Source of the DNA: an uncultured Acidobacteriota bacterium
GTDB lineage: Bacteria; Acidobacteriota; Terriglobia; Terriglobales; Acidobacteriaceae
Assembly (NCBI GenBank): GCA_963755975.1
Contig: CAVWLS010000016.1
Location: 5,965-69,964 of the forward strand
DNA length: 64,000 bases
Reading direction: 5' to 3'
In this document: in pieces, positions 8,901 to 60,675 of the stretch
Layout of the letters: each line of letters opens with the position of its first letter
Numbering within the stretch: position 1 is the stretch's first letter
The notes under the pieces: model-generated
Databases searched by the model: none
What the model was told of the DNA's origin: nothing
What the model saw: the letters and a program-made list of their open reading frames with translations, nothing else
Made by a program: the position numbers and the translations under genes

Positions 8901-9942
8901 CATTCATGGAGATGAAGCTGGCGTCCTTCAGTCCGGGGAAATTTCCTGAGTTGTAGATAATCCATCGGCTGGTTGAGACCGATCCGCTGGCCACCTGCGC
9001 CTGCTTAAAGCAGGGCTTCGGGCTCTTGTCCCCCTCCGCGCACTTGTTGGTCATCAGCAGGTTGTCGAGCGCGGGAAGCGAAGCCGAGAAGGACGGCCCG
9101 AGAATGCGCAGCGGCGCGTCGGGATGACTACTGCCGGAGCTCTCTTCGCCCGGCCGGGTACGCGCCTGTTCTTTGCCGGGCGGTTCTTCGGGTGGCTTCA
9201 GCGCTTCGGCGGCATCCTCTGCGGCCAGAGTTCTGGCCACGGCCTCGGTGCGCAGCGCAATCGTATGCCAGCTCTGCAGCGCATACAGAATCTGTCTCCT
9301 GTGCAGTATGCCGCTGGTCGGCGACTCGCCGACCAGAAAAACAATCAAGTATTCTCCCCGGACTCTGGCCTGCTGGTAGCGATTCCGGCGAAAGATCAGA
9401 ACGCCGGGAGCACATTCACGATCTGTGTCGAACCCGTGGACGTTGGTGCGGTCGATGGGGTCCTGCGACGACTGGTAGGGCACGGGATCCCAGGGCAGCC
9501 ACTGGCTGACGTAAACCCAGCCGGGAGATTTTTCCGAGGTCCCGTCCTGAAGCGCCTGCTGGAGCACGTCAATATAGCGGTCGAAACGCAGCGCGAGATG
9601 CGTGTGCACCGGATCGGGCACAAGGGCAATCATGGATTCGGTGAGCTGACTCCTCTGCCTTGTCTCCGTCGCTGGTCCTGCTGGGGGCTTGCCGGCTTCA
9701 TCCGGCTCGGGGAAGTCCACGCCGAATTCGGCGAGCTTTTCGTGCATCTCGTATCTGGCAACGGAGCAGATGTCCCCGGGATTAAAGAGCTTCTTGCTGC
9801 CTTCAATCTGAGGGACTTCGCGGGGCGTCTGCCTCCTCGGAGCTTGCGGAGACGGCGCGGTCTGGGCTCCAGAGCCGGCTGGTTGCGGCGCGCGAGGGCA
9901 ACGACCGCGGCGAGGCGAAGACAGCGAGCAATACCAGCGCAA
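5929..9942 (-). CDS. Large (~1330 aa) polytopic membrane protein of unknown function; the N-terminal soluble part is possibly periplasmic-binding-protein-like
   Basis: Uninterrupted 4-kb ORF with at least 10 hydrophobic helices in the C-terminal 650 aa (e.g. LAVVCLLALFVFFGLVLCTF, SIMVMMILIFAGFVIAVVVVF). N-terminal alternating beta-alpha-like segments (MIALVPDP, YLIVFLVGESPTSGI, LRILGPSFSASL). A signal-peptide-like start sits out of frame at 9970 (see findings). Confidence 0.7.
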   Translation of the reverse strand: MRWYCSLSSPRRGRCPRAPQPAGSGAQTAPSPQAPRRQTPREVPQIEGSKKLFNPGDICSVARYEMHEKLAEFGVDFPEPDEAGKPPAGPATETRQRSQLTESMIALVPDPVHTHLALRFDRYIDVLQQALQDGTSEKSPGWVYVSQWLPWDPVPYQSSQDPIDRTNVHGFDTDRECAPGVLIFRRNRYQQARVRGEYLIVFLVGESPTSGILHRRQILYALQSWHTIALRTEAVARTLAAEDAAEALKPPEEPPGKEQARTRPGEESSGSSHPDAPLRILGPSFSASLPALDNLLMTNKCAEGDKSPKPCFKQAQVASGSVSTSRWIIYNSGNFPGLKDASFISMNESSDAIQEMLLNYLASHEHIPRSQVAFVSEDETAFGNLLSSIPQSPGDRSAPERPLLFHYPREISQLRNAYAKSSILHRPSQAQSSDNPNQQDLTLSLEDRHEEEDSVPSFSDNQSPISEESVLSAMTRAMDREHVRVAVINGSDVLDVIFVARYFGRNLPNVRVVLLNADLFFERSPDVSDFRGMLMANSYPLIPDNIAWTGRFMHVPENGDGAATEDHPGPFGTYLPERIFASYEENGIYNAVRVLEMAPLPFLMAGQTSPEGTSGTGGSIGTKTGESTPPAAQEPPKPLWLAEYTDPFHGGDHPPLWLNAVGRGGFWPVALLGRDPSASRTQGRTSLADIPGVGDGGPSGSDSIPPAMFDSWSQSGSRLGPVSFPRLVAQKLVVARLAVVCLLALFVFFGLVLCTFARLERWPEYVFDIKGTNSERRGWIVLVIVLSFSWMARLLILDLPGAKFFQDPVNSGLIFLQIVLLLFALWLVRRALWEGERRYFAWVLIALTLMAQFAFAWIKPGEFSARIFFLYRSEHLFNGVSPVVPFLFLSIAVVCLISRHIHSLLIFSPRLMPRIPCYEGNRSPEILRSIHRCAINDILRACYSPWRMLASKLRYLLPDRKRKHPQDQGLQPDPNQRVKRLNRLRKQSGCPPVGNVPKLPAVLLVLTLVILLVSAYLLFPRGFETFETRAYSIWLSICSFAILIFLLHEIGWVILMWISLHKGLLNPLERTTLRACFSRASGFSWQRLWFSIDLSPAVRFRPLFRAYESMLHIEKDASCPAGLKPAFGRARREYNGLMTDLEPKSRVAAFARFQVALCGAASAVIGHILSGRSRQKDQLGTSLDVPAKEIEDVLKESAKDDPLGANAEEFVGLVYIYGIQHVLMDIRSHILAFTFGYFFLLLALTAYPVGPHHSIMVMMILIFAGFVIAVVVVFSQMHRDSILSRTTSTEPGKLDIGFYEKLISVLGVPAIGLLASAFPEISNFLFSWLEPSLQTLK

Positions 9943-14537: not shown

Positions 14538-15398
<861 letters not shown>

Positions 15399-15447: not shown

Positions 15448-18991
<3,544 letters not shown>

Positions 18992-29464: not shown

Positions 29465-30658
29465 ATGATGGTGGCCGCTGAGGCCCTGTGGCCAGAAATA
29501 TATTCGCCGCCCGAGGTACGATTGCACGCAAAGAAGCCATCGCCAGCTGCCGTAAGCGCAGGAGCCAGTAACCAACCCCGCTGGGATGTATTCATTGCGC
29601 ACGCCGCCAGTGACATTCGTTTCGCGATAAGTCTCTACCGGCAACTTCTCCCCAGATTTCGGGTCTTTCTCGCATCCGAGACGCTAATTCCCGGCGATGT
29701 CTGGACCACTGCTATACCAGCCGCTCAACGCAACTCCTTAGTTACTGTTGTCCTTATGTCCAGCTCCGATAGCGGGTATTACCGGCAAGAGGAGATTGCC
29801 GCCGCGATCGAAATGGCGCGACGCCCGGACTCCAGGACGCGTGTGATTCCCGTCTTTCTGTCCAGACAGATTCCTGACGATGTTCCGTATGGCTTGCGTC
29901 AGCTTCACGCCATCAAAGGTGTGACTTCAATGAAGGTGATCGCTGAAAAGATTGGCAAAGTCGTAGAGAGAGTCGCCAACCTGGAGAGTGACACGGCTGC
30001 AACTCCTGGGTCTGGTTCGACCCTGAAATCCGACGTCTCCGGCACTGCATACGTATCCGGCAGAATGGATATATCTCCAGAGATCCTCCGCGTCTCTCCA
30101 ACAGAAGAACAGGCCGCCGCACCGAAAGAGAACCTGTCGTCTCTAAATAAGCACGAAGGCCACAACTTCCTCACGACCACGCTCATCCATAAAGTCGCGC
30201 AATGGAACGAGCTGAACGTTCACCTGTCTGTGTTGCTACTTGATTTAGACAAGCTCACCAAGATCAACAATGAATACAGCGTTGAAGTCGGAAATCAGGC
30301 ATTGGAAATTGTATTTGAGATTCTAAGGAACTCTAAGGCCAAATACTATGGCCGTTGCGGCGACGACACCTTCTATGCGATTTTTACCGGCCACGCTGCG
30401 ATCAATGCAATCCGGCGGGCCAATCTTCTCCGCAGGAACATCGAGCAATATCCATGGGATCGTCTTGCCAGCGGGCTCTACGTTACTTGCAGCATCGGAG
30501 TCGCAGTCCTGCGCCCCAGGGAGCCCGTTCCTGACTGGCTCGTCCGCGCAGCCATGGGAATGAAGGAAGCAAAGCGCCACGGAGGCAATCAGGTCGCAGC
30601 TGCGCCTGTGTTCATTCCACGATCGACTAGCCGAGAGTTGCGCGACCACTATTCCTGA
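29465..30658 (+). CDS. TIR domain - degenerate GGDEF domain fusion protein
   Basis: TIR: WDVFIAHAASDIRFAISLYRQLLPRFRVFLASETLIPGDVW..VVLMSSS..YYRQEEIAAAIE..VIPVFL. GGDEF fold: LLLDLDKLTKINNEY..YGRCGDDTFYAIF..CSIGVAVL..MKEAKRHGGNQV. Lower GC than the neighbours. Confidence 0.75.
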   Translation: MMVAAEALWPEIYSPPEVRLHAKKPSPAAVSAGASNQPRWDVFIAHAASDIRFAISLYRQLLPRFRVFLASETLIPGDVWTTAIPAAQRNSLVTVVLMSSSDSGYYRQEEIAAAIEMARRPDSRTRVIPVFLSRQIPDDVPYGLRQLHAIKGVTSMKVIAEKIGKVVERVANLESDTAATPGSGSTLKSDVSGTAYVSGRMDISPEILRVSPTEEQAAAPKENLSSLNKHEGHNFLTTTLIHKVAQWNELNVHLSVLLLDLDKLTKINNEYSVEVGNQALEIVFEILRNSKAKYYGRCGDDTFYAIFTGHAAINAIRRANLLRRNIEQYPWDRLASGLYVTCSIGVAVLRPREPVPDWLVRAAMGMKEAKRHGGNQVAAAPVFIPRSTSRELRDHYS

Positions 30659-34185: not shown

Positions 34186-34878
34186 ATGCGCCCGATCGAA
34201 CGCGATGTCCTGCTGTGCATGCTCGCCGCCTGCGCCGGGTCTGCCGACGGATGGAGTTTTTTCGGGCTCAGTCACGCCTTCGTCGCCAATATGACCGGCA
34301 ACACCGTCCTGCTCGGCATGGCGGTATTCGCGATACACGGCGACGTGCTTCATCCACTCACTTCGATCGCCTGTTATGTCTCGGGCGTGATCGCCGGATC
34401 GCTGCTGACGCGAAACGCTGAGCCGGAGCGAGCAGGCGCGCCGTGGTCGCGACGGGTTCCTCTGACACTGCTGATCGAGGCCCTGCTGCTGGCCGGTGCA
34501 GAGGCCGCATGGATCAGGATGCATCCCACCGGCGTGCCGCATCCGAACCACACTTTCCTGCAGGGATCGGTCGCCTTCGCCATGGGACTGCAGAGTGCCG
34601 CCATGCTGCAACTGAAGATTCCCGGCGTCGTTACCACCTATATCACCGGCACCTGGACGACCTTCATGAGCGGTCTGACCCGGCTCGGAAAGCAGCAGCC
34701 GCCCGCAGAAAAACAGCAATTCGAGAGTCGGCTGGGCATGCAGGCCGCCGTCCTGGCCGTTTACTTTCTGTCAGCTGTGTTTACCGGCTGTCTCTTCCGC
34801 TATTTCCCGGCCGCAGTCGGAGCACTCCCCGCCGGCTCCGTGCTGCTCGTAGCCGTCTACAGCCTTGCAAAATCGTAA
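34186..34878 (+). CDS. YoaK/DUF1275-family membrane protein
   Basis: LLCMLAACAGSADGWSFFGLSHAFVANMTGNTVLLGMA.. with six hydrophobic helices. Confidence 0.8.
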   Translation: MRPIERDVLLCMLAACAGSADGWSFFGLSHAFVANMTGNTVLLGMAVFAIHGDVLHPLTSIACYVSGVIAGSLLTRNAEPERAGAPWSRRVPLTLLIEALLLAGAEAAWIRMHPTGVPHPNHTFLQGSVAFAMGLQSAAMLQLKIPGVVTTYITGTWTTFMSGLTRLGKQQPPAEKQQFESRLGMQAAVLAVYFLSAVFTGCLFRYFPAAVGALPAGSVLLVAVYSLAKS

Positions 34879-34915
34879 CCGCCGAAATCACATTCTCCCG
34901 CGATAACCTGAATAC

Positions 34916-36571
34916 ATGTTCTGGTCTGCTCGTCGACTCCTTCTTTTCTGCGCGCTCCCCGTTTTGTCCGTTACCCTCCACGCCCAGCAGGCTCCCGCTC
35001 CGCAGGCTCCCACTCACGCCGACATCCTGCGCGGAGGTTACGGGCCTTATCGCGCCAACAACGACCTGCTCTACTACCACCTCGATATTCGCGTCGATCC
35101 GGACAAGCAGACCATCACCGGCAAGAACACCATCCGCTTCAAGATGCTCAGCGACGCGAGCCGTATCCAGATTGATCTCAGCGATGCCCTGCACGTTGAC
35201 AAGATCCTCCTCGGAGACAGCCCTCTCAAATATCGACGCGACTCGGGCGCCGTCTTCATCGACTTTCCCGAGACCCTCCACGCGGGCCAGGTTTACTCCA
35301 TCGACTTCTACTACTCCGGCCACCCGCTCACCATCGGGCGCTTCGGCGGCATGGTCTTCACCAAAGATCCGGCCGGCCATCCCTGGATCTACACCTCCTG
35401 CGAAGACGATGGAGCCAGCATCTGGTGGCCCAACAAAGATCAGTGGCGCGACGAGGTCGAATCCATGGACATCAGCGTCGCCGTCCCCAACGGCCTCACC
35501 GACGTCTCCAACGGCAGGTTGCAGGGCTCAACCAACCTCGGCGACGGATACACGCGATGGGACTGGCACGTCAGCTATCCCATCAACGCTTACGACGTTG
35601 CGCTCAACATCGGCGACTACGTTCACTTCTCCGACCACTACGGCACGCTGCCCCTCGACTACTACGTGCTGCCCGCCGACCTCGACAAGGCGAAGAAGCA
35701 ATTCGCGCAGGTTCCCGGCATGCTTGAAGCCTTCGCGCACTACTTCGGTCCGTACCCCTTCGAGCGCGACGGATACAAGCTCATCCAGGTCCCCTACTCC
35801 GGCATGGAGCACCAGACGGCCGTCGCCTACGGCAATCTCTTCAAGAACGGCTACCTTGGGCGTGACTGGACCGGCGTGGGCATCAGCCCCAAATTCGACT
35901 TCATCATCATCCACGAGAGCGCGCACGAATGGTTCGGGAACAGCATCACCGCACAGGACCGCTCCGATATGTGGATTCATGAGGGCTGGGCTACGTATCT
36001 CGAATCGCTCTACGTCGAGTACTGGTACGGCAAGGACGCCGCGATTCGTTACCTTAGCGGTTACAAATCAAAGGTGCGGAACAAGCGCCCCATTATCACC
36101 GAGCGCGGCATCAACGCTACGCCTCCGGAAGACCAGTATTTCAAGGGCGCGCTCATGCTTAACACGCTGCGCAGCGTCATCGACAACGACCCGCGCTGGT
36201 TACAGCTCATCCACGACTTCTATCAGCACTTCAAGTATCAGAACATCATGACCGAGGACGTCGTTGCGTGGTTCGACGAGCAGACGAAGCTCAATCTGAC
36301 GCCGATTTTCAACCAGTACCTGCGCCACACCGCGATCCCACTGCTCGAACTGAAGTTTGATCCCGCCGCCGGAACTGTTGCCTATCGCTGGAAGGCAGAC
36401 GAAGCGGACTTCGCGATGCCTGTACGCGTCGGCGATCCTGCCCACTGGCAGACGATCCGGGCGACGACACAGTGGCAGACGATGAAGACGACGCTCACGC
36501 CCACCGCGTTCGCTGTCGACACCGACCACTTCTACATCGATGTAAGCAAGATCGAGGTGAGCAAGGAATAA
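34916..36571 (+). CDS. M1-family zinc metallopeptidase (aminopeptidase N-like)
   Basis: Signal peptide; GMEHQT; zinc motif IIHESAHEWFGNSIT..x18..WIHEGWATYLE. Confidence 0.88.
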   Translation: MFWSARRLLLFCALPVLSVTLHAQQAPAPQAPTHADILRGGYGPYRANNDLLYYHLDIRVDPDKQTITGKNTIRFKMLSDASRIQIDLSDALHVDKILLGDSPLKYRRDSGAVFIDFPETLHAGQVYSIDFYYSGHPLTIGRFGGMVFTKDPAGHPWIYTSCEDDGASIWWPNKDQWRDEVESMDISVAVPNGLTDVSNGRLQGSTNLGDGYTRWDWHVSYPINAYDVALNIGDYVHFSDHYGTLPLDYYVLPADLDKAKKQFAQVPGMLEAFAHYFGPYPFERDGYKLIQVPYSGMEHQTAVAYGNLFKNGYLGRDWTGVGISPKFDFIIIHESAHEWFGNSITAQDRSDMWIHEGWATYLESLYVEYWYGKDAAIRYLSGYKSKVRNKRPIITERGINATPPEDQYFKGALMLNTLRSVIDNDPRWLQLIHDFYQHFKYQNIMTEDVVAWFDEQTKLNLTPIFNQYLRHTAIPLLELKFDPAAGTVAYRWKADEADFAMPVRVGDPAHWQTIRATTQWQTMKTTLTPTAFAVDTDHFYIDVSKIEVSKE

Positions 36572-46498: not shown

Positions 46499-46526
46499 GT
46501 TACCAAAGAGCGTTATGGTAATCGGC
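46499..46526 (+). repeat. Right copy of the 28-nt imperfect direct repeat
   Basis: See 44490-44517. It lies about 60 nt upstream of the probable glycosylase ATG. Confidence 0.6.
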
Positions 46527-46586: not shown

Positions 46587-47192
46587 ATGCAGAAGCTCCT
46601 GCCGCGCAGTTTCTACCTCGACCCGCCTGACATTGTCGCCCGCAAGCTGCTTGGCAAGCTCATCCGCCGCCGTATCGACGGACACCGCGTTACCGGCCGC
46701 ATCGTCGAGATTGAAGCCTATCTCGGCCTCGACGACCCCGCCTCCCACTCCTACATCGGCAAGACCGCACGCAACGCCGTCCTCTTCGGGCCGCCCGGCT
46801 TCGCCTATGTCTACTTCATCTATGGGATGTATTACTGCCTTAATGTATCCTGCCAGCCCGACGGACATGCCGGCGGCGTCCTCATCCGCGCTCTCGAGCC
46901 CGTTGAAGGCCTCGACATCATGGCCCGCCTGCGCAAGCTGCCCAAGTCGGCCGCGCCACGCCTGCTCACCTCCGGCCCGGGACGCCTCTGCCAGGCTCTC
47001 GACATCACCCGCGCCGCCCACAACGGACTCGACGTCACCAGCCGCACTTCGGTCCTGCAAATCCTCGACGACGGCTACGAACCTGAGATGATCCGCTCCA
47101 CGCCCCGGATCGGCATCAATAAGGCAGTCGAGCATCCGCTGCGTTTTGTGATCGAGGGCAATGCGTTTGTAGCGGATAGCGAAGCTGGGTAA
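46587..47192 (+). CDS. DNA-3-methyladenine glycosylase (Mpg/AAG family)
   Basis: LPRSFYLDPPDIVARKLLGKLI..GRIVEIEAYLGLDDPASHSY.GKT.RN..LFGPPGFAYVYFIYGMYYCLNV. The last ~26 codons are duplicated at 48475-48552. Confidence 0.85.
   Translation: MQKLLPRSFYLDPPDIVARKLLGKLIRRRIDGHRVTGRIVEIEAYLGLDDPASHSYIGKTARNAVLFGPPGFAYVYFIYGMYYCLNVSCQPDGHAGGVLIRALEPVEGLDIMARLRKLPKSAAPRLLTSGPGRLCQALDITRAAHNGLDVTSRTSVLQILDDGYEPEMIRSTPRIGINKAVEHPLRFVIEGNAFVADSEAG
47103..47180 (+). repeat. Left copy of a direct repeat (65 nt perfect, ~78 nt near-perfect), the 3' end of the glycosylase gene
   Basis: ccccggatcggcatcaataaggcagtcgagcatccgctgcgttttgtgatcgagggcaatgcgtt is identical at 47103-47167 and 48475-48539. Confidence 0.9.
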
Positions 47193-47249
47193 ACTCGGAA
47201 TTATGAGTTCATTAACGGTAGGTTTGGAATGCAAAAGGGGAAATTCCGG

Positions 47250-48452
47250 ATGAAACTGCGCGTTAGCCTTCTGCTGGCTCCCATTCTGCTGAGCTAGATT
47301 GGTTCTGTCGCGATGGCGGCTGAAGGTTCGATATGGTGCTTTTGGGCGGAAAGGTCTATATAGCGGACGCGGACCGATAGACAACGCAATAGTACTTATT
47401 CGGAATGGTTGGATTGTCGCGGTTGGTAAACGGAGAGAGCTGAAGGTTTGGAAGTGGGTGCATGTGATAGATTGCATTGGTAAGGTAATGTCGTTGGATT
47501 CTGGAATAGTTATGTGTATTTTGAAATTGGATGGTAGGATATTTTGCATGTTTTGGTAGAGAAAATTGAAGCGCATATGCAGGAGATGCTGACTAGTTGG
47601 GGTTTCACGACGGTGTGGGATCTCGGTTCTGATTTTGACAACACACTGGCGCTTTGGCTTTGGATTGAGGTTGGAGAGATGCAGTAGTAAATTTTGATGG
47701 TAGGAGATATTTTCTCTAAGAATGGTTATTTGGTCTATCTTTCAGTAGAAATGTAGTTGTGGAAGCTGTCACTCTAGAAGAAGAGAAAGAGATGGCGTAG
47801 CAGTATTTGAAGATGGGTCTTGATGGTATCAAGCTCTTTACGGTGTATTTATGGGTGACAAGCTAGTGATAAATATGGATACCGCTATAGTGAGAGCGCG
47901 TCAGATGTGGCGCACGTAGAGGGTAAGAAGGTCTTTGCGTATAAGTAGAACAGAAAGGGGGTGGACAATGCGCTGGCTGGTGGTGTTGAAGTGCTGGCAC
48001 ACACTATTTAGAATGAAGGTAGTTTTACAGTAGATGAGTTGTAATGGATGAAGCAACAACACATTGCTTTTATTGAGACTCTGATTTTGTGGAAGAAGGT
48101 GGTTTCAGATATCGCTGTGGTAGATAAACTTGTGGTATCAGGAGTGGATGAGTTGAAGGTGTATTTCTCAGAGGGCGGCACAATCCTCTTTGGAACTGAT
48201 GTGGGCTTCCAGTACAAGTACGACACCGCAATGGAGTTTGAGTTTATGGGACGAGCGATGCTCTGGCGCGATATTCTCGTATCGCTAACCACCAATCACA
48301 GTGCGTTCTTCAAGGAGAAGGCGAAAGGTAGCGTAGAGAAGGATATGAACGACGATCTGGTAGTGCTCAATGCAGATCTAGCGAAAGATGTAAGGAATCT
48401 TGCAAAGGTGGTGTACAAGATGAGAGGAGGAAAGATAATATACTATGGTTAA
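47250..48452 (+). pseudogene. Amidohydrolase-superfamily gene relic, C-depleted and hypermutated, with many stops
   Basis: Signal MKLRVSLLLAPILLS then TAG; NAIVLIRNGWIVAVGKRRELKV..VHVIDC.GKV; HMQEMLTSWGFTTVWDLGSDFDNTLAL; C-terminal third intact (48048..48452: GGTILFGTDVGF..DLVVLNADLAKDVRNLAKVVYKMRGGKIIY). More than 10 in-frame TAG/TAA/TGA codons and at least one frame change. My hand count for 47401-48180 is about 86 C against about 252 G. Confidence 0.75.
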
Positions 48453-48474
48453 GGTAAATAGCAGTAGTAGCTCT

Positions 48475-48552
48475 CCCCGGATCGGCATCAATAAGGCAGT
48501 CGAGCATCCGCTGCGTTTTGTGATCGAGGGCAATGCGTTCGTAAGCGGATAA
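48475..48552 (+). repeat. Right copy of the glycosylase 3'-end direct repeat (reads PRIGINKAVEHPLRFVIEGNAFVSG*)
   Basis: See 47103-47180. Confidence 0.9.
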
Positions 48553-48614
48553 CGGGCATCCAACTTTTAGGCGTTAATTTATCCTGTTCACGGCAAACGC
48601 TTTCGAGGTCATGA

Positions 48615-50144
48615 GTGAAGCATGGACATACCAGCCCGACACCCAGTCCGCCCGATGGCGCCCCGCAGACAACGGTTGACCCCCGCTCTCACCTGGCCGC
48701 CATCGTCGACAGCTCCGATGATCCCATCATCAGCAAGGACCTGAATGGAACGATCATCAGCTGGAATCAGGCTGCCGTTCGCGTCTTCGGCTACCGCCCA
48801 GAGGAGATGGTCGGCCAGTCGATTCTTCGGCTGATTCCCCCAGAGTTGCGTCACGAAGAGGACGAAATTCTGCTTAAGGTGAGGGCCGGTGAACGAATCG
48901 ACCACTACGAAACGGTGCGCGTCAAAAAGAACGGCGAAAAGTTCCCCGTGTCCGTCACCATTTCTCCCATCCGGGATGTCTCCGGCCGCGTAGTCGCCGC
49001 CTCCAAGGTCGTTCGCGATATATCCGACCGCAGGAGAAGCGAGGAGAGCCGCTTCCGGCTGGCGGCCATCGTTGATTCTGCGGAGGACGCCATTGTCAGC
49101 AAAGACTTAAATGGCGTTGTTACAAGCTGGAATGAAGGGGCACACCGGATGTTTGGCTATACCCCGGATGAGATGGTCGGCCAGCCCATCCTGCGTCTCA
49201 TTCCTCCAGAGCTGCACTACGAAGAAGATCACATCCTGCGGACGCTGAGGGCCGGAGGCCGCCTCGATCATTACGAGACCACACGGATGAAGAAAAATGG
49301 CGAGACTTTCGAAGTCTCCGTCACCATTTCTCCTATCAGGGATGCGACCGGCCGGGTTGTCGGCGCTTCAAAGATTGCCCGCGATATCTCCGACCGCAAA
49401 CGCATCCAACAGCTTCTTGTCCAGTCTGAAAAACTCGCCGTCACCGGACGGATGGCAGCTGCGATCGCTCACGAGATCAACAATCCTCTCGAATCGCTGA
49501 TCAACCTTATTTTTCTGGCGCGGCAAAACAGCGCCGTAGGCGGCAAAGCTCATAACTATCTGCTGACCGCCGAGCAGGAGATGGAGCGCGTCTCCCACAT
49601 TGCCCGGCAGACGCTGGGCTATTATCGAGATACGAATTCGCCCGTCGACCTGTACCTCCATGAGCTGATCGATAATGTGTTGACCGTATATAACTCGAAG
49701 CTGCTTGCCGGCAAAATTTCTGTCGACACGCGCTTCAATGACCCGCAGAAGATCGCAGTCAGCAGGGGGGAAATGCTCCAGGTCTTCACGAATATTATTG
49801 CCAACGCCATGGATGCGATGCGTCGGGGAGGAGTGCTGCGTATCTCGACCCATAAGCATCAGAGTTCCGCAGGCGAGGGGATTGAGACCGTCATTCAGGA
49901 TAGCGGTGTCGGCATAGCCCAGGAGCACCTGGAAAAGGTTTTCGAACCCTTCTTCACGACCAAGGGCGACCTGGGGACCGGCATCGGCCTTTGGGTCGCC
50001 AGGCAGCTTATCGAAAACCGCGGAGGCAAGATCTCCCTCACCAGCAGCACAAAAGACGGAAACAGCGGCACAACCATTACGATTTTTCTCCCCTTTGCTG
50101 CTCCTGTCTCGCGCACTCCTAACGAAAATGCGTTATCACTTTGA
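48615..50144 (+). CDS. Sensor histidine kinase with two PAS domains
   Basis: Two PAS units (AIVDSS.DPIISKDLNGTIISWNQAA..FGY.PEEMVGQSILRLIPPEL.HEED), H-box AAIAHEINNPLESL, and N/G boxes in the HATPase domain. Confidence 0.88.
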   Translation: MKHGHTSPTPSPPDGAPQTTVDPRSHLAAIVDSSDDPIISKDLNGTIISWNQAAVRVFGYRPEEMVGQSILRLIPPELRHEEDEILLKVRAGERIDHYETVRVKKNGEKFPVSVTISPIRDVSGRVVAASKVVRDISDRRRSEESRFRLAAIVDSAEDAIVSKDLNGVVTSWNEGAHRMFGYTPDEMVGQPILRLIPPELHYEEDHILRTLRAGGRLDHYETTRMKKNGETFEVSVTISPIRDATGRVVGASKIARDISDRKRIQQLLVQSEKLAVTGRMAAAIAHEINNPLESLINLIFLARQNSAVGGKAHNYLLTAEQEMERVSHIARQTLGYYRDTNSPVDLYLHELIDNVLTVYNSKLLAGKISVDTRFNDPQKIAVSRGEMLQVFTNIIANAMDAMRRGGVLRISTHKHQSSAGEGIETVIQDSGVGIAQEHLEKVFEPFFTTKGDLGTGIGLWVARQLIENRGGKISLTSSTKDGNSGTTITIFLPFAAPVSRTPNENALSL

Positions 50145-50620
50145 GAGATCCGGTCATGTTCGAGATGATGTCGGGCTCCATTCAGGTAGGCGATGAATTA
50201 ACCCGGGAGCAGATCGAGGCTTCGTGGGGCAAGTCAGACTCGGAGGAGCTCGAGAAAAACCGGCCCAGGGTTCTGGTTGTCGACGATGAACGGCTGATCG
50301 CGGATACGATAACCGACATACTGGAGGGAGCCGGCTTTGACGCCATGGCTGCCTACGATGGCTGGAGCGCTCTGGAAACTGCCGCCAACGCTCACCCGGA
50401 TTATGTGCTCTCCGATATTTTGATGCCGACGATGAATGGCGTCGAGCTGGCGATCACGATGCAGAAGCTCTACCCGGCAGCCAGAATTCTCCTCTTCTCA
50501 GGACAGGCCGGAATCTCACAGATATTGCTGGACGGGCAGAAAAAGGGCTTTGAATTTAAGCTGATTCCGAAACCAATCCACCCCTTCAAGCTGATCGAGC
50601 TGCTCAAGAGCCGGCCATAA
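50141..50620 (+). CDS. Single-domain response regulator (receiver)
   Basis: RVLVVDDERLIADTITDILE..DYVLSDILMPTMNGVEL..LLFSGQ..KP. The TTG at 50141 overlaps the kinase stop; an alternative ATG lies at 50156. Confidence 0.8.
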   Translation: MRDPVMFEMMSGSIQVGDELTREQIEASWGKSDSEELEKNRPRVLVVDDERLIADTITDILEGAGFDAMAAYDGWSALETAANAHPDYVLSDILMPTMNGVELAITMQKLYPAARILLFSGQAGISQILLDGQKKGFEFKLIPKPIHPFKLIELLKSRP

Positions 50621-50705
50621 GAGGCGACTCGACGGGCTCCAGCGCCCCGTCCCCCTGTAGACCATTGACGACGGCTTCGAGCCTGGCATGATCCACCCTC
50701 ATGCT

Positions 50706-52443
50706 CTAACGCTGACCTGCTGCCGGCAGAACGCGGATGGTTCCCATCATTCCGCCATCCTCATGCTCCAGCAGATGACAGTGATAGACAAACGTCCCTA
50801 CCGCATCGGGATCGCGAAAATCCATGCGCAGCGTGACGCTGGGATAAGGCGTGCCCTTCCCCTTCCAGTAAGGCACATTGATCGTGTCGCGCAGAAAGGG
50901 TTCGTCCACCGGCGCGCCGTCCCACTGCGTCAGCATGAAATGAATCTGGTGGATGTGAAAGGTGTGCGATTCCGGCGAGCGGTTTTCAATCACCCAGTCC
51001 TCGACATCTCCCTGGTGCACCGTGATATCGGGCTCCGTCGCGTGCGGGTCGAAGGGCGCGGGAGTCTGGCCCTCCACGCGTGATCATAAAAACAGTCGGG
51101 CTGCCGGGGACGCCCGGCTCCGACGGCCGTTCGGAGAAGTAAAGCTTTCGCGTCCGCACCGGCTTCACATTGCCCAGCCAGACCAGCGGAGAGGCAGCCA
51201 GCGGCTCAGGGGCTGCCGCAAGCCGCGTGGCTGGCTCCGCGGCATCGTCTGAGGCCACAATCGCCGCAAGCGGACGCACCGGATCGTTTTCTCCTGCCGG
51301 TCCGGTATCGACGCTGCGCGTGATGAGGCGCGCGTCTGTTCCTTTTGGTATGCCCTTGAAGATGAATTCGACCCGCGCGGCAGGCGGCAGGAAGAGATGA
51401 TCCGTCCACAACACCCGGTCGCGCGACATGCCGTTTTCATTGATCGGCACCCCATCGAGCGACACCACGCCGATCGCCTGAGGCTGGTTCCCGATCACGA
51501 TCTGCAGGTCGAGATAGGTGATTGCCGAAGCGTTCAGAACCCTCCACAGCTGCCGCTCTGATGGCCTCACCATCAGCCGCGCCGGAGGATAGTCCGGATA
51601 AGGGACGGGAACGAAATTGATGGAGAGGTCCTTGGCCGGTTTGCCCGTTCCGGTTCCCGTGTTGAGAATGTCTCCCTCGGCGTCGCGAAAGACGGGCGGC
51701 ACGAGGCCCGATTTCGCGGGCTGCGCCTCGGGATTGAGCAGCTCCTGATCGCGGATCACGAAGACCCGCTCGGGCAGGCCCGCAAGCTGCCGGTTGGCGC
51801 GTTCGATCCCATCCACGATCATCGCTCCCGAAGCTCCCCCGAGAACCTGTGGATTCGTGAAGCCGTGGATATGGGGGTGATACCAGTAGACGCCGGGCGG
51901 CTCGTCGGCGGGAACCCGGAAACGGTATTCAAAGGGCGCGTCTCCCGGCTGGACCGCTGTGTGCAGGACATCGTCCTCGTGGCACATCGGCGGCACGGTC
52001 ATCCCGTGGAAATGCAGATTGGTGGAAAGCGCGGTCATCTGCGCGTTTGCGCAAGGCTCTGAGATGGCCATTCCCGGCCCAGGGCGCGATGCCGGCGAAT
52101 TTCCCGCTGAAGATGGCGAGGTCAGATTGTTTTTGAGGTGAAGAACCAGCAGATCGCCGGGTTGAAGACGCAGCGTAGGCGCCTGGCTGCCGTCTTTCGA
52201 CCGGTAACAGTACTCCTCCTGCCCATCGGATGCCCGGAAATTACTGTACGTCAGCTCGACTTCCAGAACGCCATTACGACTGCGCAGGTTCTCCGGTTCC
52301 GTAACCACGCTCCCCGGCGCGGGACGCGGGCAGATCTCCTGCGCGGTCGCCGCCGCCGTCGAGATCAGGGCTAGTGTCAGGGCCAGTGTCAGCCCCAGCG
52401 CCAGCCCGCCAACCACCCGCAATTTCAACAACGCCGCCTGCAT
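50706..52443 (-). pseudogene. Three-domain multicopper oxidase with one frameshift near 51080
   Basis: ORF 50986..52551 (signal MQAALLKLRVVGGLALG.., LHFHGM, WYHPHIHG) and ORF 50706..51077 (HTFHIHQIHF, HCHLLEHEDGGMM) are co-linear. The junction reads TVFMIT | VEGQTPAPFD. Confidence 0.8.
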
Positions 52444-52643
52444 TTTCCGGGAAGCAAAACTAATACACGCCGATGATTGACCTTCGATGAATAAGTCCCG
52501 CACCGCCGTCACCATTTCAGCGCCACATATTCCCCGCGATTTCATTTCCATGCAACAAAAGTGGTCTACGGTTCCTTTCGCCCACTACTTTACAGGCGGC
52601 TCCGCATTGAGATACTCGGTGGCACGCTGGAAAGGTCTTCGAA

Positions 52644-54149
52644 ATGAAAAAATATCCTGCCGCGCTTCTGGCGGTTGTTGCCCTCACCCTGTTTTCGAAC
52701 CCATCCGCATCCTGGGCGCAGTATGGCCATCCGCCCTCCGGAGCCGAGGGCTATGCAACGACGACTCCCGTCAAGCACCTGGTGATCATCTTCGATGAGA
52801 ACATCTCCTTCGATCATTACTTCGGCGCTTACCCGGTGGCCGCGAACCCTCCTGGTGAGCCGGTCTTCAGAGCGCTCCCCTTCACGCCGGCCGTCAATGG
52901 CCTGACCTCCACCCTGCTTAACGCCAACCCCAACGCCGCGGCGCCCTTCCGCCTCGACCGCTCCGAAGCCGTCACCTGCGACAACGACAATCACTATACC
53001 GATGAGCAGACGGCCTATGACGGCGGCCTGATCGACAAGGTCTCCGAGCTGCTGAGCGGCACGGGCGTGGGCTGCACGCCAAATCTCTCCATGGGCTACT
53101 ACGACGGCAACACCGTGACTGCCCTGTGGAACTACGCCCAGCACTACGCGATGAGCGACAACTTCTTCGGGACGACCTTCGGCACGACGGTCATGGGACA
53201 TCTGAATCTTGTTTCCGGCCAGACCCACGGAGCCACACCCACCACGGTCTCCGGCAAGGTGGCGAATGGCAGCGTGATCGCGAACATCGACCCCACGGGA
53301 GACGATTGCTCGACCGGTAAGACGATTCAGATGGCAGGTCCAAGCGTCGGCGATCTGCTGAACGCGAAGAAAGTCACCTGGGGCTGGTTTTACGGCGATT
53401 GGACGCCGGCTTCGACGACCGGCGGCGTAGCTACATGCATCGCCCAGGAAGATCCCCACTACACTCCATTCCAGTACTTCGCCTCGACGCTGAATCCGCA
53501 CCACACGCCGCCATCCTCGGTCGGCGCAATCGGATACACCGATCAGGCCAACCATCAGTACGCGCTTACCGATTTCTGGAATGCTGTCGCAGCCAACAAC
53601 CTGCCCGCGGTGAGTTTTCTGAAGGCTCCAGCCAACGAGACCGGCCACCCATCCACGTCGAGCCCGCTGCTTGAACAAACCTTCCTCGTCGAGACCATCA
53701 ACAAGCTGCAGCAGAGCCCGCAGTGGAAGGACATGGCCATCCTCATCGCGTGGGATGATTCCGACGGCTGGTACGATCACGTACTCGCGCCCATCGTCAA
53801 CAAATCGAGCGATTCCAACAATGATGCGCTGCTCGGACCGTCGGGACTCTGCGGCACCGCCGCCTCCGGAGCTTACCTCGACCGCTGCGGCTACGGCCCC
53901 CGGCTTCCATTTCTCGTGATTTCGCCCTTCGCAAAGGAAAACTTCGTCGCCCACACCGTCGCCGATCAAACTTCGATTCTCCGCTTCATCGAAGACAACT
54001 GGCAGCTCGGCCAGATCGGCAATCAATCCTTCGACGCCATCTCCGGATCGATCCAGAATCTGTTTGACTTCAACGCCTACGGCAGGATCGGGGCCCAGGA
54101 CCGAAAACTGATTCTCGATCCCGACAGCGGAGAGCCGCAGGGATGGTAG
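52644..54149 (+). CDS. Secreted phosphoesterase-family protein (phospholipase C / AcpA acid phosphatase type)
   Basis: Signal peptide; VKHLVIIFDENISFDHYFGAYP; ..AILIAWDDSDGWYDH..RLPFLVISPFAK. Confidence 0.8.
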   Translation: MKKYPAALLAVVALTLFSNPSASWAQYGHPPSGAEGYATTTPVKHLVIIFDENISFDHYFGAYPVAANPPGEPVFRALPFTPAVNGLTSTLLNANPNAAAPFRLDRSEAVTCDNDNHYTDEQTAYDGGLIDKVSELLSGTGVGCTPNLSMGYYDGNTVTALWNYAQHYAMSDNFFGTTFGTTVMGHLNLVSGQTHGATPTTVSGKVANGSVIANIDPTGDDCSTGKTIQMAGPSVGDLLNAKKVTWGWFYGDWTPASTTGGVATCIAQEDPHYTPFQYFASTLNPHHTPPSSVGAIGYTDQANHQYALTDFWNAVAANNLPAVSFLKAPANETGHPSTSSPLLEQTFLVETINKLQQSPQWKDMAILIAWDDSDGWYDHVLAPIVNKSSDSNNDALLGPSGLCGTAASGAYLDRCGYGPRLPFLVISPFAKENFVAHTVADQTSILRFIEDNWQLGQIGNQSFDAISGSIQNLFDFNAYGRIGAQDRKLILDPDSGEPQGW

Positions 54150-54156
54150 CCGCAGG

Positions 54157-54180
54157 CTAGGGCTTGTTAACAAGCCCTGG
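54157..54180 (+). terminator. Perfect palindromic hairpin after the phosphoesterase gene
   Basis: agggcttgttaacaagccct is a perfect 20-nt palindrome at 54159-54178, followed by ggcgcgtttta. Confidence 0.55.
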
Positions 54181-58837: not shown

Positions 58838-59006
58838 GTGCGTACCGGGATGGTAGTCCGCATCCTCGCGGCGAGTCAAAAAGAATGACCGGAGCCGCAA
58901 ATTTCGACGGCGAACGTCCGAATTCTGCCCCTCGGCTGCTATGCCTGACATCGAATCAAGGCCGTACAGAGTCATTATAGATTCGATGCCCGCAACGCCC
59001 GCAGCC

Positions 59007-59294
59007 CTACCCGAGCGCGTGCAGAGTCTCCACCGAGCGTTCCAGCATCCGCTGATAGAGACTTCCCACGATGTACTTCTTGAAGTGCGCCGACGCGCGG
59101 TGTGCATCTGCCGCTGCCGCGTCCTTATATTGTTCGTAGATGACGACCGTGTCAGAATCGCCGTCTACGATGTGCGGAATATAGGTCACGCAGCCCGGTT
59201 CGAGGCGCGATGCCTGGGTAACCGCGCGCAGCGACTCCTGAATCTCTTCCCGATCTTCGGCCTTGAACCTGAGGCGCACCGTAAAACTGATCAT
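59007..59294 (-). CDS. Antibiotic-biosynthesis-monooxygenase (ABM) domain protein
   Basis: MISFTVRLRFKAEDREEIQESLRAVTQASRLEPGCVTY..VVIYEQYKDAAAADAHRASAHFK. Confidence 0.75.
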   Translation of the reverse strand: MISFTVRLRFKAEDREEIQESLRAVTQASRLEPGCVTYIPHIVDGDSDTVVIYEQYKDAAAADAHRASAHFKKYIVGSLYQRMLERSVETLHALG

Positions 59295-59336
59295 TGCGAC
59301 GAACCTTCCATCGACAGGATAGCAAGGAAGAAATCC

Positions 59337-60675
59337 TCAGCCCTCGAGTTCCTTCAACGCCCCCGCAAATTCATCGAGCGCCATCGTCTGCTCCCGGTCC
59401 GGACCGGTCGACACCATCCCGATCTTCGCGCCCGACTCCCTCTCCAGAAACCCGAGATACTCCCGCGCCTCCTTCGGCAGCTTGTCCCACTCGACAATGC
59501 CTTCCGTCGGCTCGCTCCAGCCTTTCAGCTTCGTATACACCGGCTTGATCGACTCCATCCCGCGCACATCCGCCGGCATCGTGTCCACTTTCTTGCCGTC
59601 GATCTCGTAGCCGATGCACACCGGAATCTCCGCCATCCCGTCCAGCACATCCAGCTTCGTCACCACCAGCCATTCCGTCCCGTTGATCATGTTCGAGTAG
59701 CGCAGCAGCGGCAGGTCCATCCACCCGCAGCGCCTGGGGCGCCCGGTTACCGCCCCGAACTCATTGCCCCGCGCCCGCAGCAGCTCGCCCTGCTCATCAT
59801 GCGACTCCGTCGGGAACGGACCCTCGCCCACCCGCGTGACATAAGCTTTCGTCACGCCAATCACCGTCCCAATCGCCGTCGGGCCCACACCCGTGCCCGT
59901 GATCGCTCCGCCCGCCGTCGCCGACGACGAAGTCACAAACGGATACGTCCCGTGATCGATATCGAGCATCGTGCCCTGCGCGCCCTCAAACATCACGCTC
60001 TTGCCCGCGCGGATCGCTCCATTCAGCAGCGCCGCCGTATCCGTCACAAACGGAGCCACCTGCTCCGCCGCCCGTGCATACTCCTCATACATCTGCACCG
60101 GATCGAGCGGCTCAGTCCCGAAGAGCGCATGCGCCACCGTGTTCTTCTCGTGGCAGGCATTCTGGATATGCGTCTTCAGCAGATTCGTATTCAGCAGGTC
60201 GATCACGCGCAGCCCGTTGCGCGCCATCTTGTCCTCATACGCCGGACCGATCCCACGGCTCGTCGTCCCGATCTTCTGCCGCCCCGGAGCGCTCTCCGCC
60301 GCCAGCTCAATCATCCGGTGATAGGGCAGAATCACCTGCGCCCGGTTCGACACGAAGACCTGCTCATCGACCGCCCACGCCCAGGTCGCGCAGCTTGCCG
60401 ACCTCCTTCAGAAAGGCCATCGGATCGAGCACCACCCCGTTGCCGATCACCGCCTGGCAATCCGGCCGCAGAATCCCGCACGGAATCAGCTGCAGAATGA
60501 ACTTCTGCCCGCGAATGATGACCGTGTGCCCGGCATTGTGTCCGCCCGCATACCGCGCGACGACCGCAAACCGCTCCGACAGGACATCAACGATCTTGCC
60601 CTTACCCTCATCGCCCCACTGGGCGCCGACCACCACTGCTGTTTTTGCTCGCATCCCTGTCTTTTCTAATCCCAA
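59337..60675 (-). pseudogene. purA: Adenylosuccinate synthetase, single-base frameshift near 60358-60375 (possibly a sequencing artefact)
   Basis: N-terminus 60364..60675: [32 protein letters not shown]-terminus 59337..60353: SNRAQVILPYHR..KIGTTSRGIGPAYEDK..GTTTGRPRRCGW-like. The junction gcgtgggcggtcgatgag is one base too long in a G/C run. Confidence 0.85.

Follow-up and report, generated by a model that had tools for sequence, protein, structure and literature searches.

A gene relic inserted at the 3' end of mpg

On the + strand of the window (the whole 64-kb stretch of DNA analysed here, from a soil acidobacterium), a hypermutated amidohydrolase pseudogene (positions 47250–48467), delimited by its homologues, nucleotide alignments and substitution spectra, lies between mpg and a gene for a PAS-PAS histidine kinase. 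The mpg gene (46587–47192, with an alternative start at 46515) encodes a 3-methyladenine (methylpurine) DNA glycosylase; a first-pass annotation made from the letters alone had named it as such, and a match to PF02245 (E = 1.5e-66) bears this out. The histidine kinase gene (48615–50144), assigned by Pfam, lay next downstream of mpg in the ancestral arrangement and is free of hypermutation.

The pseudogene is flanked by a direct repeat of the mpg 3' end. The left copy lies within mpg (47103–47167) and is identical over 65 nt to 48475–48539, the beginning of the right copy (48475–48554). The repeat extends to 69 nt with one mismatch (T at 47168 vs C at 48540) and to 80 nt at 96% identity, confirming the repeat of 65 perfect and about 78 near-perfect nucleotides that the first-pass annotation had described. 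Past its perfect part the left copy keeps a weaker likeness to the right copy until ~47186, with changes that are not C-specific (C>T, deletion of an A, A>G, G>A and G>A). Homology more than ~20 nt past the perfect part is not significant, and under both C-tolerant and standard scoring the left flank resembles the DNA downstream of the right repeat no more than shuffled sequences do.

A junction, followed by upstream DNA that the amidohydrolase gene brought with it, occupies 47193–47249. In alignments to the upstream regions of three homologues (L001, L004 and L005), the likeness begins at ~47205–47222 and includes the ribosome-binding region. At the other end, 7 nt (TAGCTCT, 48468–48474) connect the original stop codon of the relic, a TAG at 48465–48467, to the right repeat copy.

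The relic is the only content of the insert, which holds no site-specific recombinase. Our scan of the 64-kb window revealed no genes for a deaminase, uracil glycosylase, AlkB, translesion polymerase, reverse transcriptase, integrase or other recombinase, transposase or defence system, including any nucleotide-depleting defence enzyme, and no RVT-family match among the scanned ORFs. An Rfam search gave no match, and there was no close match indicating a plasmid or phage origin.

The mpg 3' end as an insertion hot spot

Orthologues of mpg (83–90% amino acid identity, from Acidobacteriaceae MAGs) end in ..FVSK* or ..FVSG*. The gene in the window instead ends in a frameshifted tail, ..FVADSEAG* (47168–47192), and the right repeat copy ends in ..AFVSG with a TAA stop at 48550–48552. 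The ..FVSG* of the right copy had initially been viewed as an alternative end; the comparison with orthologues reverses this assignment, the right copy being the original mpg 3' end and the left copy the derived one. The right copy, now severed from mpg, continues into the ancestral spacer between mpg and the histidine kinase gene. It aligns colinearly with the single mpg end and downstream DNA of a related contig, L088, as well as with the second mpg ends, now decayed, of L008 and L090.

With its single mpg 3' end, L088 represents the empty site in a related genome, and the first-pass proposal that the relic is an insertion is thereby upheld. Three other relatives (L007, L008 and L090) carry different cargo at the same place, behind a duplicated mpg end whose second copy is old. 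Judged by ORF homology, these cargos look like an epimerase-like protein, a methyltransferase-like protein and a secreted protein of 399–400 residues, and none of them appears to be an integrase or other recombinase. Because relatives hold different cargo behind a duplicated mpg end, we consider the mpg 3' end to be an insertion hot spot. The insertion and the accompanying duplication of the mpg end are thus shown; a single crossover, as suggested in the first-pass annotation, is a possible origin. The neighbouring glycosylase is probably relevant only in that its 3' end is the hot spot.

The arrangement resembles integrative elements and cis-mobilisable islets that use gene 3' ends and are bounded by att repeats: a gene-end direct repeat flanks the insert, the left copy keeps mpg whole, an empty site exists and the cargo varies among relatives. 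Unlike those elements, the insert consists of a single gene without a recombinase, and its repeat has no notable secondary structure, attC-like or other (z-scores −1.2 to +1.2).

This amidohydrolase gene is not present near mpg in any of the relatives examined (160 related loci), and the window holds no second copy. Exact-protein look-ups of the relic's 134-residue ORF and of two Mpg start variants gave no record. Mpg-based scans of genomes and metagenomes returned no contig of the same species (best match 90% amino acid identity).

The relic is a dead amidohydrolase gene

A homology search with the relic returned 2594 matches, the best of which is 65% identical over 99% of the query (E = 4.5e-122). 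Although a Pfam scan of the raw translation, read through its stop codons, yielded nothing above thresholds, the homologues at about E = 1e-122 carry PF07969 and PF01979, and the full-length homology to these proteins confirms the amidohydrolase-superfamily identity first suggested by inspection.

Compared with its homologues, the relic has 11 premature stops, five 1-nt deletions and three 3–4-nt deletions, and about 55% of the ancestral C on its + (coding) strand has been substituted or deleted. All 11 premature stops derive from C-containing codons, as the first-pass annotation had surmised. What it had called an intact C-terminal third (48048–48452, a 134-residue ORF) is not intact: the TAA that closes this ORF descends from CAC, and the true stop lies at 48465–48467. 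Reverting the changes at C sites alone restores an intact reading frame. Since every premature stop and frameshift traces to a C position, the amidohydrolase gene was intact before the event that damaged it. As it stands, the relic is dead and without a function in its own right.

The loss of C is evident in base composition. The 780 nt from 47401 to 48180 contain 206 A, 85 C, 249 G and 240 T (10.9% C, 31.9% G), in close agreement with an earlier hand count of 86 C and 252 G. The whole window has 30.8% C and 28.7% G, and 780-nt windows outside the locus average 31.2% C (sd 3.5%, minimum 24.6%). GC skew reaches +0.64 in 200-nt windows of the tract. Across 1.07 Mb (the window plus fetched loci), the rarest base of a 400-nt window falls to 9.75% at the locus and is at least 12% elsewhere. 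A strong skew by itself is nevertheless not unusual in a GC-skew scan of related loci; related coding strands are natively C-rich at normal G+C, and the case is therefore built on comparison with homologues rather than on skew.

This comparison disposes of plain horizontal transfer of a gene natively AT-rich and skewed. The tract does have a lower G+C content than the surrounding DNA, as such a transfer would leave it, but the closest homologues are neither AT-rich nor similarly skewed (55–58% G+C, with 25–27% C and 30–31% G). The stops and frameshifts at C positions throughout the tract, together with the C-specific spectrum described below, complete the refutation, and we regard the probability of this explanation as negligible.

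Substitutions and deletions target cytosine on one strand

We determined the substitution spectrum at sites where the homologues L001 and L005 agree. Here 132 of 248 C are changed (82 to T, 39 to A, 11 to G), compared with 10% of A, 11% of G and 6% of T. Sites invariant in three lineages give a similar result: 52% of C changed (65 to T, 29 to A, 9 to G and 6 deleted), with only 4–9% of A, G and T changed. The spectrum is thus far from strand-symmetric (C 53% vs G 11%, Fisher p = 3e-28; C>A vs G>T, p = 1e-10), and G, which the first-pass annotation had described as not depleted, changes at the background rate of 9–11%. C changes occur at all three codon positions. Loss of C on the + strand is indistinguishable from loss of G on the − strand.

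About 62% of the changed C became T, 30% A and 8% G, so that 38% of the changes are transversions. Indels relative to the homologues are exclusively deletions. At three of the five 1-nt deletions both homologues have C, and at the other two one has C and the other T; the 3–4-nt deletions remove CCGC, CCG and ACT/TCT. The one-strand, C-to-T-like change reported in the first-pass annotation is therefore cytosine- and strand-specific as claimed, but it is not pure C-to-T. With ~38% of the changed C going to A or G, and deletions at C, plain deamination read as T is not the whole story.

The ability to recover an intact frame by undoing the C-site changes alone would also be expected of a sequencing, basecalling or assembly artefact, in which the real gene is intact and about half of its + strand C has been miscalled, perhaps on DNA carrying dense strand-specific base modification or damage, or in which the junctions are chimeric. 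Changes at ~50% of sites, with both substitutions and deletions, fit a strand-discordant consensus, and the close relatives in public data are mostly long-read MAGs. None of the collections searched contains the species, so the locus has no independent copy for comparison. On the other hand, we know of no failure mode that produces one-base errors of this density confined to 1.3 kb; known methylation-linked sequencing errors are bound to motifs. The window otherwise contains long intact ORFs (up to 1337 residues), and the boundaries fit a sensible insertion, given the empty site in L088 and the use of the same hot spot in L007, L008 and L090. Dense modification of one strand of a single gene would itself need explaining. 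We consider an artefact improbable.

The damage is confined to the insert and is patchy

The damage lies within 47168–48474, beginning at the first base past the left repeat and reaching to within ~7 nt of the right repeat. In the perfect part of the right repeat, 17 of 17 C are unchanged (P = 2.7e-6 at the rate of the relic). The flanking genes, the histidine kinase gene included, have symmetric substitution spectra against L008, and neither the unselected spacer (48553–48614) nor the synonymous sites of mpg have lost C. At non-C sites, the relic differs from its homologues by 11–15%, no more than the homologues differ among themselves (9–13%), indicating that almost no ordinary mutations have accumulated since the insertion.

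Slow decay in place, with an old insert undergoing gradual, strand-asymmetric loss of C (for example, by deamination on the strand left untranscribed when transcription reads through from mpg) and with the repeats kept identical by gene conversion, is hard to reconcile with that low divergence or with the retention of C in the spacer and at mpg synonymous sites. The greater than 10-fold asymmetry, the 38% transversions and the deletions at C are likewise unlike transcription-associated deamination. The + strand is indeed the non-transcribed strand of mpg read-through, a perfect repeat core with ragged edges is what gene conversion leaves, and the second mpg ends of the three cargo-bearing relatives are old. 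Weighing these points, we think slow decay very unlikely.

Within the insert, the depletion is patchy, as had been noted by eye, and the patchiness is statistically real (block-variance P = 0.0008). A short patch (47608–47652) retains 11 of 14 ancestral C, and a long, largely spared patch (48176–48373) retains 34 of 43. Non-C sites are changed in 7.2% of cases in hypermutated segments and 6.4% in spared segments, and those beside a changed C are not changed more often, so we detected no collateral errors. Outcomes at C are mixed in different proportions in the first and second halves of the gene. In structures predicted for the ancestral single strand, the changed C show no excess of unpaired positions; the slight trend is in the opposite direction. 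There is also no dislocation signature, the new base matching a neighbour no more often than expected.

Sequence context has modest effects. Tabulated by 5' neighbour, C is changed in 67% of cases after C, 57% after T, 44% after A and 39% after G (p = 0.017), a weak 5' pyrimidine preference without an enzyme-typical motif; neither TC, CC nor WRC deaminase motifs were found at changed C. The strongest effect is protection by a 3' T, only 20% of such C being changed. CpA is not preferred (55% changed vs 61% of CpG).

Besides an ssDNA deaminase, the first-pass annotation had proposed a DddA-like deaminase or a RIP-like process, which would attack double-stranded DNA or be triggered by repeats, respectively, and act in place. 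Dense C changes in a discrete segment associated with a duplication are in keeping with this proposal, and deaminase toxins are described as mutagenising surviving bacteria in one report (PMC7901873). That mutagenesis is genome-wide rather than local, however. The relic was hit on one strand only, with G at background; transversions and deletions are abundant; there is neither a TC nor a CpA preference; and the 65-nt repeats, the sole duplicated DNA visible, are unharmed. Fungal RIP offers a parallel in the dense, C-targeted killing of a newly duplicated or inserted gene by TAG and TAA stops, but it acts on both strands of long duplicates, converts C:G to T:A only and prefers CpA, unlike the relic with its one-strand damage, its 38% transversions and deletions, and its untouched repeats. 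A process of either kind is unsupported and, by the one-strand spectrum, largely refuted, leaving a DddA- or RIP-like process as a highly improbable source of the damage.

A single-stranded intermediate as a candidate source of the damage

The data show one-strand cytosine specificity with deletions at C, confined to the insert and without collateral errors. Our tentative preference is for lesions on the cytosines of a single-stranded intermediate, either uracil processed to an abasic site or 3-methylcytosine, that were copied by translesion synthesis. The single-stranded intermediate, the identity of the lesion, the translesion synthesis and the timing relative to integration are inferred.

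An intact amidohydrolase gene, with ~45–65 nt of its own upstream DNA and ~7 nt past its stop codon, would have entered between mpg and the histidine kinase gene at a point within the last ~80 nt of mpg, duplicating the last 65–88 nt of mpg. Shortly before or during insertion, the + (coding) strand of the insert would have been single-stranded, and more than half of its cytosines would have taken on a lesion to which DNA is prone only, or mainly, when single-stranded: uracil, produced by deamination and then excised to leave an abasic site, or N3-methylcytosine. Translesion synthesis of the complement would then have inserted A (giving C to T), T (C to A) or C (C to G) opposite the lesion, or skipped it (giving a deletion). 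The flanking repeats, paired with intact chromosomal DNA, would therefore have been protected or repaired.

Both candidate lesions have precedents. APOBEC3 and AID edit single-stranded DNA in hypermutated retroviral cDNA, kataegis clusters and yeast single-strand reporters. Like their products, the relic has dense, strand-coordinated, C-specific changes over a segment of ~1 kb with the adjoining duplex DNA spared. The order of insertion during abasic-site bypass in Escherichia coli is A > T > C. In yeast single-stranded DNA, APOBEC3G together with uracil glycosylase yields C to T, C to G and 6% indels, and without the glycosylase C to T only, in clusters of up to 12 mutations per reporter (PMC3521656); the relic's small indels and its outcomes other than C to T are those to be expected after uracil excision. 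Its proportions of T, A and G, with deletions, would be compatible with such excision and subsequent bypass of abasic sites in a bacterium. Unlike these cases, the relic lies in a bacterial chromosome, no deaminase gene accompanies it in the window, its context effects (weak 5' pyrimidine preference, 3' T protection) are not those of TC, CC or WRC motifs, and its second outcome is C to A (30%) rather than C to G.

N3-methylcytosine is a product of MMS-type damage and is repaired by AlkB. In alkB-deficient E. coli it causes mostly C to T and C to A, and the relic likewise has T and A outcomes above G. The order T > A > G in the relic thus appears to agree with both bypass patterns in E. coli. 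The lesion arises mainly in single-stranded DNA, and translesion synthesis past it yields C to A, C to G or C to T along with 1-nt deletions and complex mutations (PMC8610418), matching the C to T, A and G changes and 1-nt deletions of the relic. The density in the relic is, however, orders of magnitude higher than in MMS-type mutagenesis, and adenine, the other target of alkylation in single-stranded DNA, is not clearly affected (A changed 6.8–10% vs T 3.9–6%; A>G vs T>C, p = 0.11).

Several observations sit uneasily with the single-strand lesion model. Some 140 lesions would have to be bypassed on one 1.2-kb strand without loss of the molecule, and because this density is far above that of the yeast clusters, several rounds or another mechanism are suggested. 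C to A is the second commonest change, unlike in the yeast data; a single, simple event would not be expected to leave different outcome mixes in the two gene halves; and the changes in the left tail (47168–47186) are not C-specific. Also counting against the model are the lack of candidate enzyme genes in the window, the weak 5' preference, the predicted folds in which changed C are not preferentially unpaired, and the equivalence of + strand C loss to − strand G loss.

Altering ~55% of one base in one tract would be easier by misincorporation than by bypass of ~140 lesions. This consideration favours nucleotide-pool starvation, in which the insert would have been copied once by a non-proofreading polymerase (a reverse transcriptase acting on the gene's mRNA, or else a polymerase of repair or translesion synthesis) with one nucleotide nearly absent, and then joined at the mpg hot spot. 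With the + strand as the newly made strand, the scarce nucleotide would be dCTP; with the + strand or mRNA serving as template, it would be dGTP. About half of the positions needing it would have received a wrong nucleotide or been skipped. Mispairs rank G:T, then G:A, then G:G, and the T > A > G order in the relic equals this ranking. The deletions lie at the starved base, other bases show no excess of errors, and the gene-sized insert (from ~45–65 nt before the start codon to 7 nt past the stop) suits a copy derived from mRNA. Defence enzymes that deplete dCTP or dGTP exist in bacteria, as described in one preprint (bioRxiv 10.1101/2021.04.26.441389). Against starvation, the window contains neither a reverse transcriptase nor a nucleotide-depleting defence gene, the dislocation signature is absent, a uniform shortage predicts neither the sharp spared patches nor the shift in outcomes between the gene halves, and the insert stops 7 nt past the stop codon, not at a transcript terminator. 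Starvation is the main rival explanation, though a doubtful one.

Diversity-generating retroelements provide a related comparison. They too replace one base by any of the other three, at roughly every second position and in one pass, with sharp edges at flanking homology and without collateral errors, as in the relic. They differ in that they target A rather than C, over ~100–150 bp rather than 1.2 kb; the relic has deletions, is a dead gene rather than a diversified binding domain, and has no reverse transcriptase, accessory gene or template repeat in the window.

Implications

Hypermutation of cytosines in a strand-coordinated manner is a familiar feature of retroviral restriction, antibody genes, cancer genomes and yeast models. 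In the literature we found no account of a bacterial chromosome that bears such a natural footprint. The relic may, although we think this unlikely, be the first recognised fossil of a bacterial process, whether defence-like or a by-product of recombination or repair, in which incoming or integrating DNA has the cytosines of one strand attacked, as densely as in APOBEC restriction of retroviruses or in fungal RIP, and the gene is killed; a variant that we include in the same guarded assessment is that a reverse transcriptase short of dGTP copied the gene from its mRNA and that this copy was integrated at the hot spot.

The locus supplies a search image for further cases: tracts the size of a gene in which one base falls below ~12%, flanked by repeats and with homologues whose composition is normal. 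If the tract is instead a consensus artefact of dense strand-specific modification, it is relevant to assembly quality control. If the tract is genuine, DNA on its way into a bacterial genome can stay single-stranded for long, become nearly saturated with damage at one base and still be fixed. This would bear on how horizontally acquired genes are inactivated, on the mutation load that a single recombination event can carry and on the possible existence in bacteria of an APOBEC-like or nucleotide-depletion-linked barrier that leaves fossils in genomes.

Composition and identity of the relic

Base counts over 47401-48180 (A 206, C 85, G 249, T 240) gave 10.9% C and 31.9% G, reproducing the C-poor, G-normal tract described in the first-pass annotation. 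C makes up 30.8% of the whole window, and 780-nt windows outside the locus averaged 31.2% C (sd 3.5%, minimum 24.6%). From ~47200 to ~48500 the GC skew rises up to +0.64 and G+C drops to about 40-48%; both are normal again on either side, and no other C-poor or G-poor patch was found in the window. Among related loci, Edaphobacter- or Tunturibacter-like loci (L034, L037, L040, L053, L054, L057, L061, L063, L066) show GC skews between -0.35 and -0.54 that persist for many kilobases while G+C stays normal, with G down to 12-13% in 400-nt windows, so their coding strands are natively very C-rich. Strong GC skew alone is thus not rare among these relatives, and the case for the relic rests on comparison with homologues.

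The relic (47250-48467, + strand) lies between mpg and a histidine-kinase gene. Its raw translation is too damaged to match any Pfam family. The read-through translation has 2594 homologues (lowest E 4.5e-122), the best of which are 410-aa amidohydrolases (PF07969, PF01979) that cover 99% of the query with 62-65% identity, in line with the superfamily first assigned to the tract. The homologue genes, compared as DNA in three lineages (L001-L004, L005-L006 and L167-L169), show no unusual base composition (C 25-27%, G 30-31%, T 19-21%), which rules out a natively AT-rich donor with the same skew.

The relic begins with an ATG at 47250, with likeness to the upstream regions of homologues from about 47205-47222, and ends at the original TAG stop (48465-48467), only 7 nt from the right-hand repeat described below. 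The C-terminal third (48048-48452) had been considered intact, but the TAA at 48450 that closes this ORF of 134 aa arose by mutation of a CAC codon. All 11 premature stops arose from C-containing codons (e.g. CAG, CCG, CAC and TCC to TAG or TAA), and every frameshift lies at a C position, so the gene was intact before the event. Undoing the C-site changes gives back an intact gene; the same result could come from a strand-discordant consensus called over modified DNA, although we regard such an artefact as very unlikely.

Changes fall on C of one strand

Where L001 and L005 share the same base, 132/248 ancestral C (53%) are changed in the relic (82 to T, 39 to A, 11 to G), compared with 10% of A, 11% of G and 6% of T. 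At sites invariant in all three homologue lineages, 52% of C are changed (65 to T, 29 to A, 9 to G, 6 deleted), compared with 6.8% of A, 9.2% of G and 3.9% of T. The spectrum is strand-asymmetric both for C versus G changes (p = 3e-28) and for C>A versus G>T (p = 1e-10), and the excess over the complementary G changes, taken as background, amounts to about 61 C>T, 35 C>A and 8 C>G. All indels relative to the homologues are deletions in the relic. Of five 1-nt deletions, three are at positions with C in both homologues and two at positions with C in one and T in the other; longer deletions remove CCGC, CCG and ACT/TCT. All three codon positions are affected (48%, 48% and 64% of C changed). The one-strand C specificity claimed in the first-pass annotation thus stands, but the change is not simply C to T. 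The process acted specifically on cytosines of the + strand or on guanines of the - strand, two readings that are indistinguishable.

The 5' neighbour had a weak effect on the fraction of C changed (C 67%, T 57%, A 44%, G 39%), and the 3' neighbour a stronger one: only 20% of C before T are changed (GCT 0/10, TCT 1/7; p = 0.0008 over 16 contexts). C to A changes are concentrated at C with a 3' G. The depletion is patchy, as had been noted, with the spared patches at 47608-47652 and 48176-48373 (23% of C changed versus 61% elsewhere). Outcomes differ between 47250-47900 (T 55, A 12, G 7, deleted 10) and 47901-48467 (T 25, A 28, G 4, deleted 0; p = 0.015). Non-C sites are changed equally in hypermutated and spared parts (7.2% and 6.4%), with no elevation beside changed C. 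The new base at changed C matches a neighbour no more often than expected, and the folds predicted for the reconstructed single strand do not account for which C survived.

In columns without C in any homologue, identity between relic and homologues is 85-89%, against 87-91% among the homologues, so ordinary divergence covers practically all non-C differences. The C changes came either in a burst or under conditions that left all other bases unmutated. In principle, the relic could instead have decayed slowly and strand-asymmetrically in place, with gene conversion keeping the repeats alike, but this would need a >10-fold asymmetry together with many transversions and deletions, and neighbouring unselected DNA lacks the asymmetry it requires.

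The relic at an insertion hot spot behind mpg

The upstream gene encodes a methylpurine DNA glycosylase (mpg; PF02245, E 1.5e-66), and the reported 65-nt perfect repeat of its 3' end is exact at 47103-47167 and 48475-48539 (with one mismatch it reaches 69 nt, and at 96% identity about 80 nt). In L088, a metagenome contig whose Mpg is 89% identical, a single mpg end continues directly into sequence orthologous to window 48553-48597. L088 is the empty site, which identifies the right-hand copy (..FVSG*, stop at 48550-48552) as the original mpg end; the left-hand tail is derived (..FVADSEAG*, with a 1-nt deletion). No amidohydrolase was found near mpg in about 160 related loci, and the window holds no second copy.

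Damage is confined to the insert. Spectra of mpg, the genes upstream of it and the downstream histidine kinase are symmetric relative to their orthologues in the related locus L008. A C-to-T difference occupies the first base beyond the left repeat, and changes extend to about 7 nt from the right repeat, in which all C are intact (17/17; P = 2.7e-6 at the relic's rate).

Other cargo occupies this position in related loci. L007 (6594-9205) has 2.5 kb of different cargo immediately after mpg; then comes a second copy of the repeated mpg segment, diverged (77%) and starting at about the same CCCCG. In L008 (6594-8960) and L090 (3911-4743) the cargo is different again and gives way to a decayed second copy of the mpg 3' end and then to the kinase. 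Judged by ORF homology, the cargos of these loci comprise a secreted protein of 399-400 aa and two genes, one methyltransferase-like and one epimerase-like, with no recombinase gene among them; the repeat has no notable structure. The relic is an insertion at this hot spot.

A fragment at 50626-50694 resembles mpg nt 440-508 (80% identity to the mpg of L007; 78% to that of the window over 41 nt). It sits between a response-regulator gene (50141-50620) and a multicopper-oxidase gene, and L090 lacks both regulator and fragment, so the regulator may be another insert that brought a piece of mpg.

Other features of the window

The multicopper-oxidase gene (50706-52551, -) comprises two overlapping ORFs, split relative to L090 by a 1-nt insertion near 51078, outside any homopolymer; the frameshift is either genuine or an error in the consensus. 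A 300-nt direct repeat within the histidine-kinase gene (48683-48982 and 49049-49348, 68% identity) corresponds to its two PAS domains, an ordinary domain duplication. The protein encoded at 29465-30658 (+) joins a TIR domain to a GGDEF diguanylate-cyclase domain and has weak PADLOC matches to TIR-containing models. An NAD-dependent DNA ligase ORF (15448-18783, -; 1111 aa) has an N-terminal extension of ~415 aa without a Pfam match and adjoins a small ORF (14538-15152, -) with a marginal BRCT match (E 5.6e-4, just under the Pfam cut-off). Large ORFs at 5929-9942 (-), 34443-36251 (+), 52590-54173 (-) and 58941-60500 (+) match no Pfam, NCBIfam or PADLOC family, and the sole match of that at 22735-25488 (+) in these collections is a weak acidobacterial VWA-domain family; these ORFs range in length from 519 to 1337 aa.

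Origin of the footprint

The footprint works like those of APOBEC editing, kataegis and single-strand alkylation clusters, but differs from APOBEC-type editing in having no deaminase motif. It resembles DGR mutagenesis in that one base is changed to any base at half of the sites, but the target is C instead of A and the window contains no retroelement; unlike RIP, it affects one strand and includes transversions. The relic fails defining tests of APOBEC-type editing, DGR mutagenesis and RIP. Literature searches found no natural bacterial example of such a footprint, and the relic is a single instance from which we infer a mechanism.

One strand, one base, all outcomes plus deletions, no collateral errors and sharp limits at the homologous flanks point to a state in which only the + strand of the insert was vulnerable while the flanks were duplex. 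We tentatively favour, at somewhat less than even odds, a model in which a single-stranded intermediate acquired cytosine lesions and was then copied by translesion synthesis. Its main difficulty is density, with about 140 lesions to be placed on 1.2 kb. In the chief rival, the insert was copied in one pass by a non-proofreading polymerase or reverse transcriptase short of dCTP or dGTP. This accounts for the density and the absence of collateral errors and suits a gene-sized unit; it leaves the spared patches unaccounted for, no relevant gene was found in the window, and we consider this rival unlikely.

For the lesion model, the outcome order T > A > G agrees with bypass of abasic sites and 3-methylcytosine in E. 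coli. Cytosines on the single strand could have been converted to uracil and then to abasic sites: in yeast single-stranded DNA, APOBEC3G yields only C to T without uracil glycosylase, and C to T, transversions and 6% indels with it (PMC3521656). The second candidate lesion, N3-methylcytosine, arises mainly in single-stranded DNA, and when bypassed it causes substitution of C by A, G or T as well as 1-nt deletions and complex mutations (PMC8610418). With either lesion, the + strand of the insert would have been single-stranded between duplex flanks, and translesion synthesis would then have copied the lesioned cytosines.
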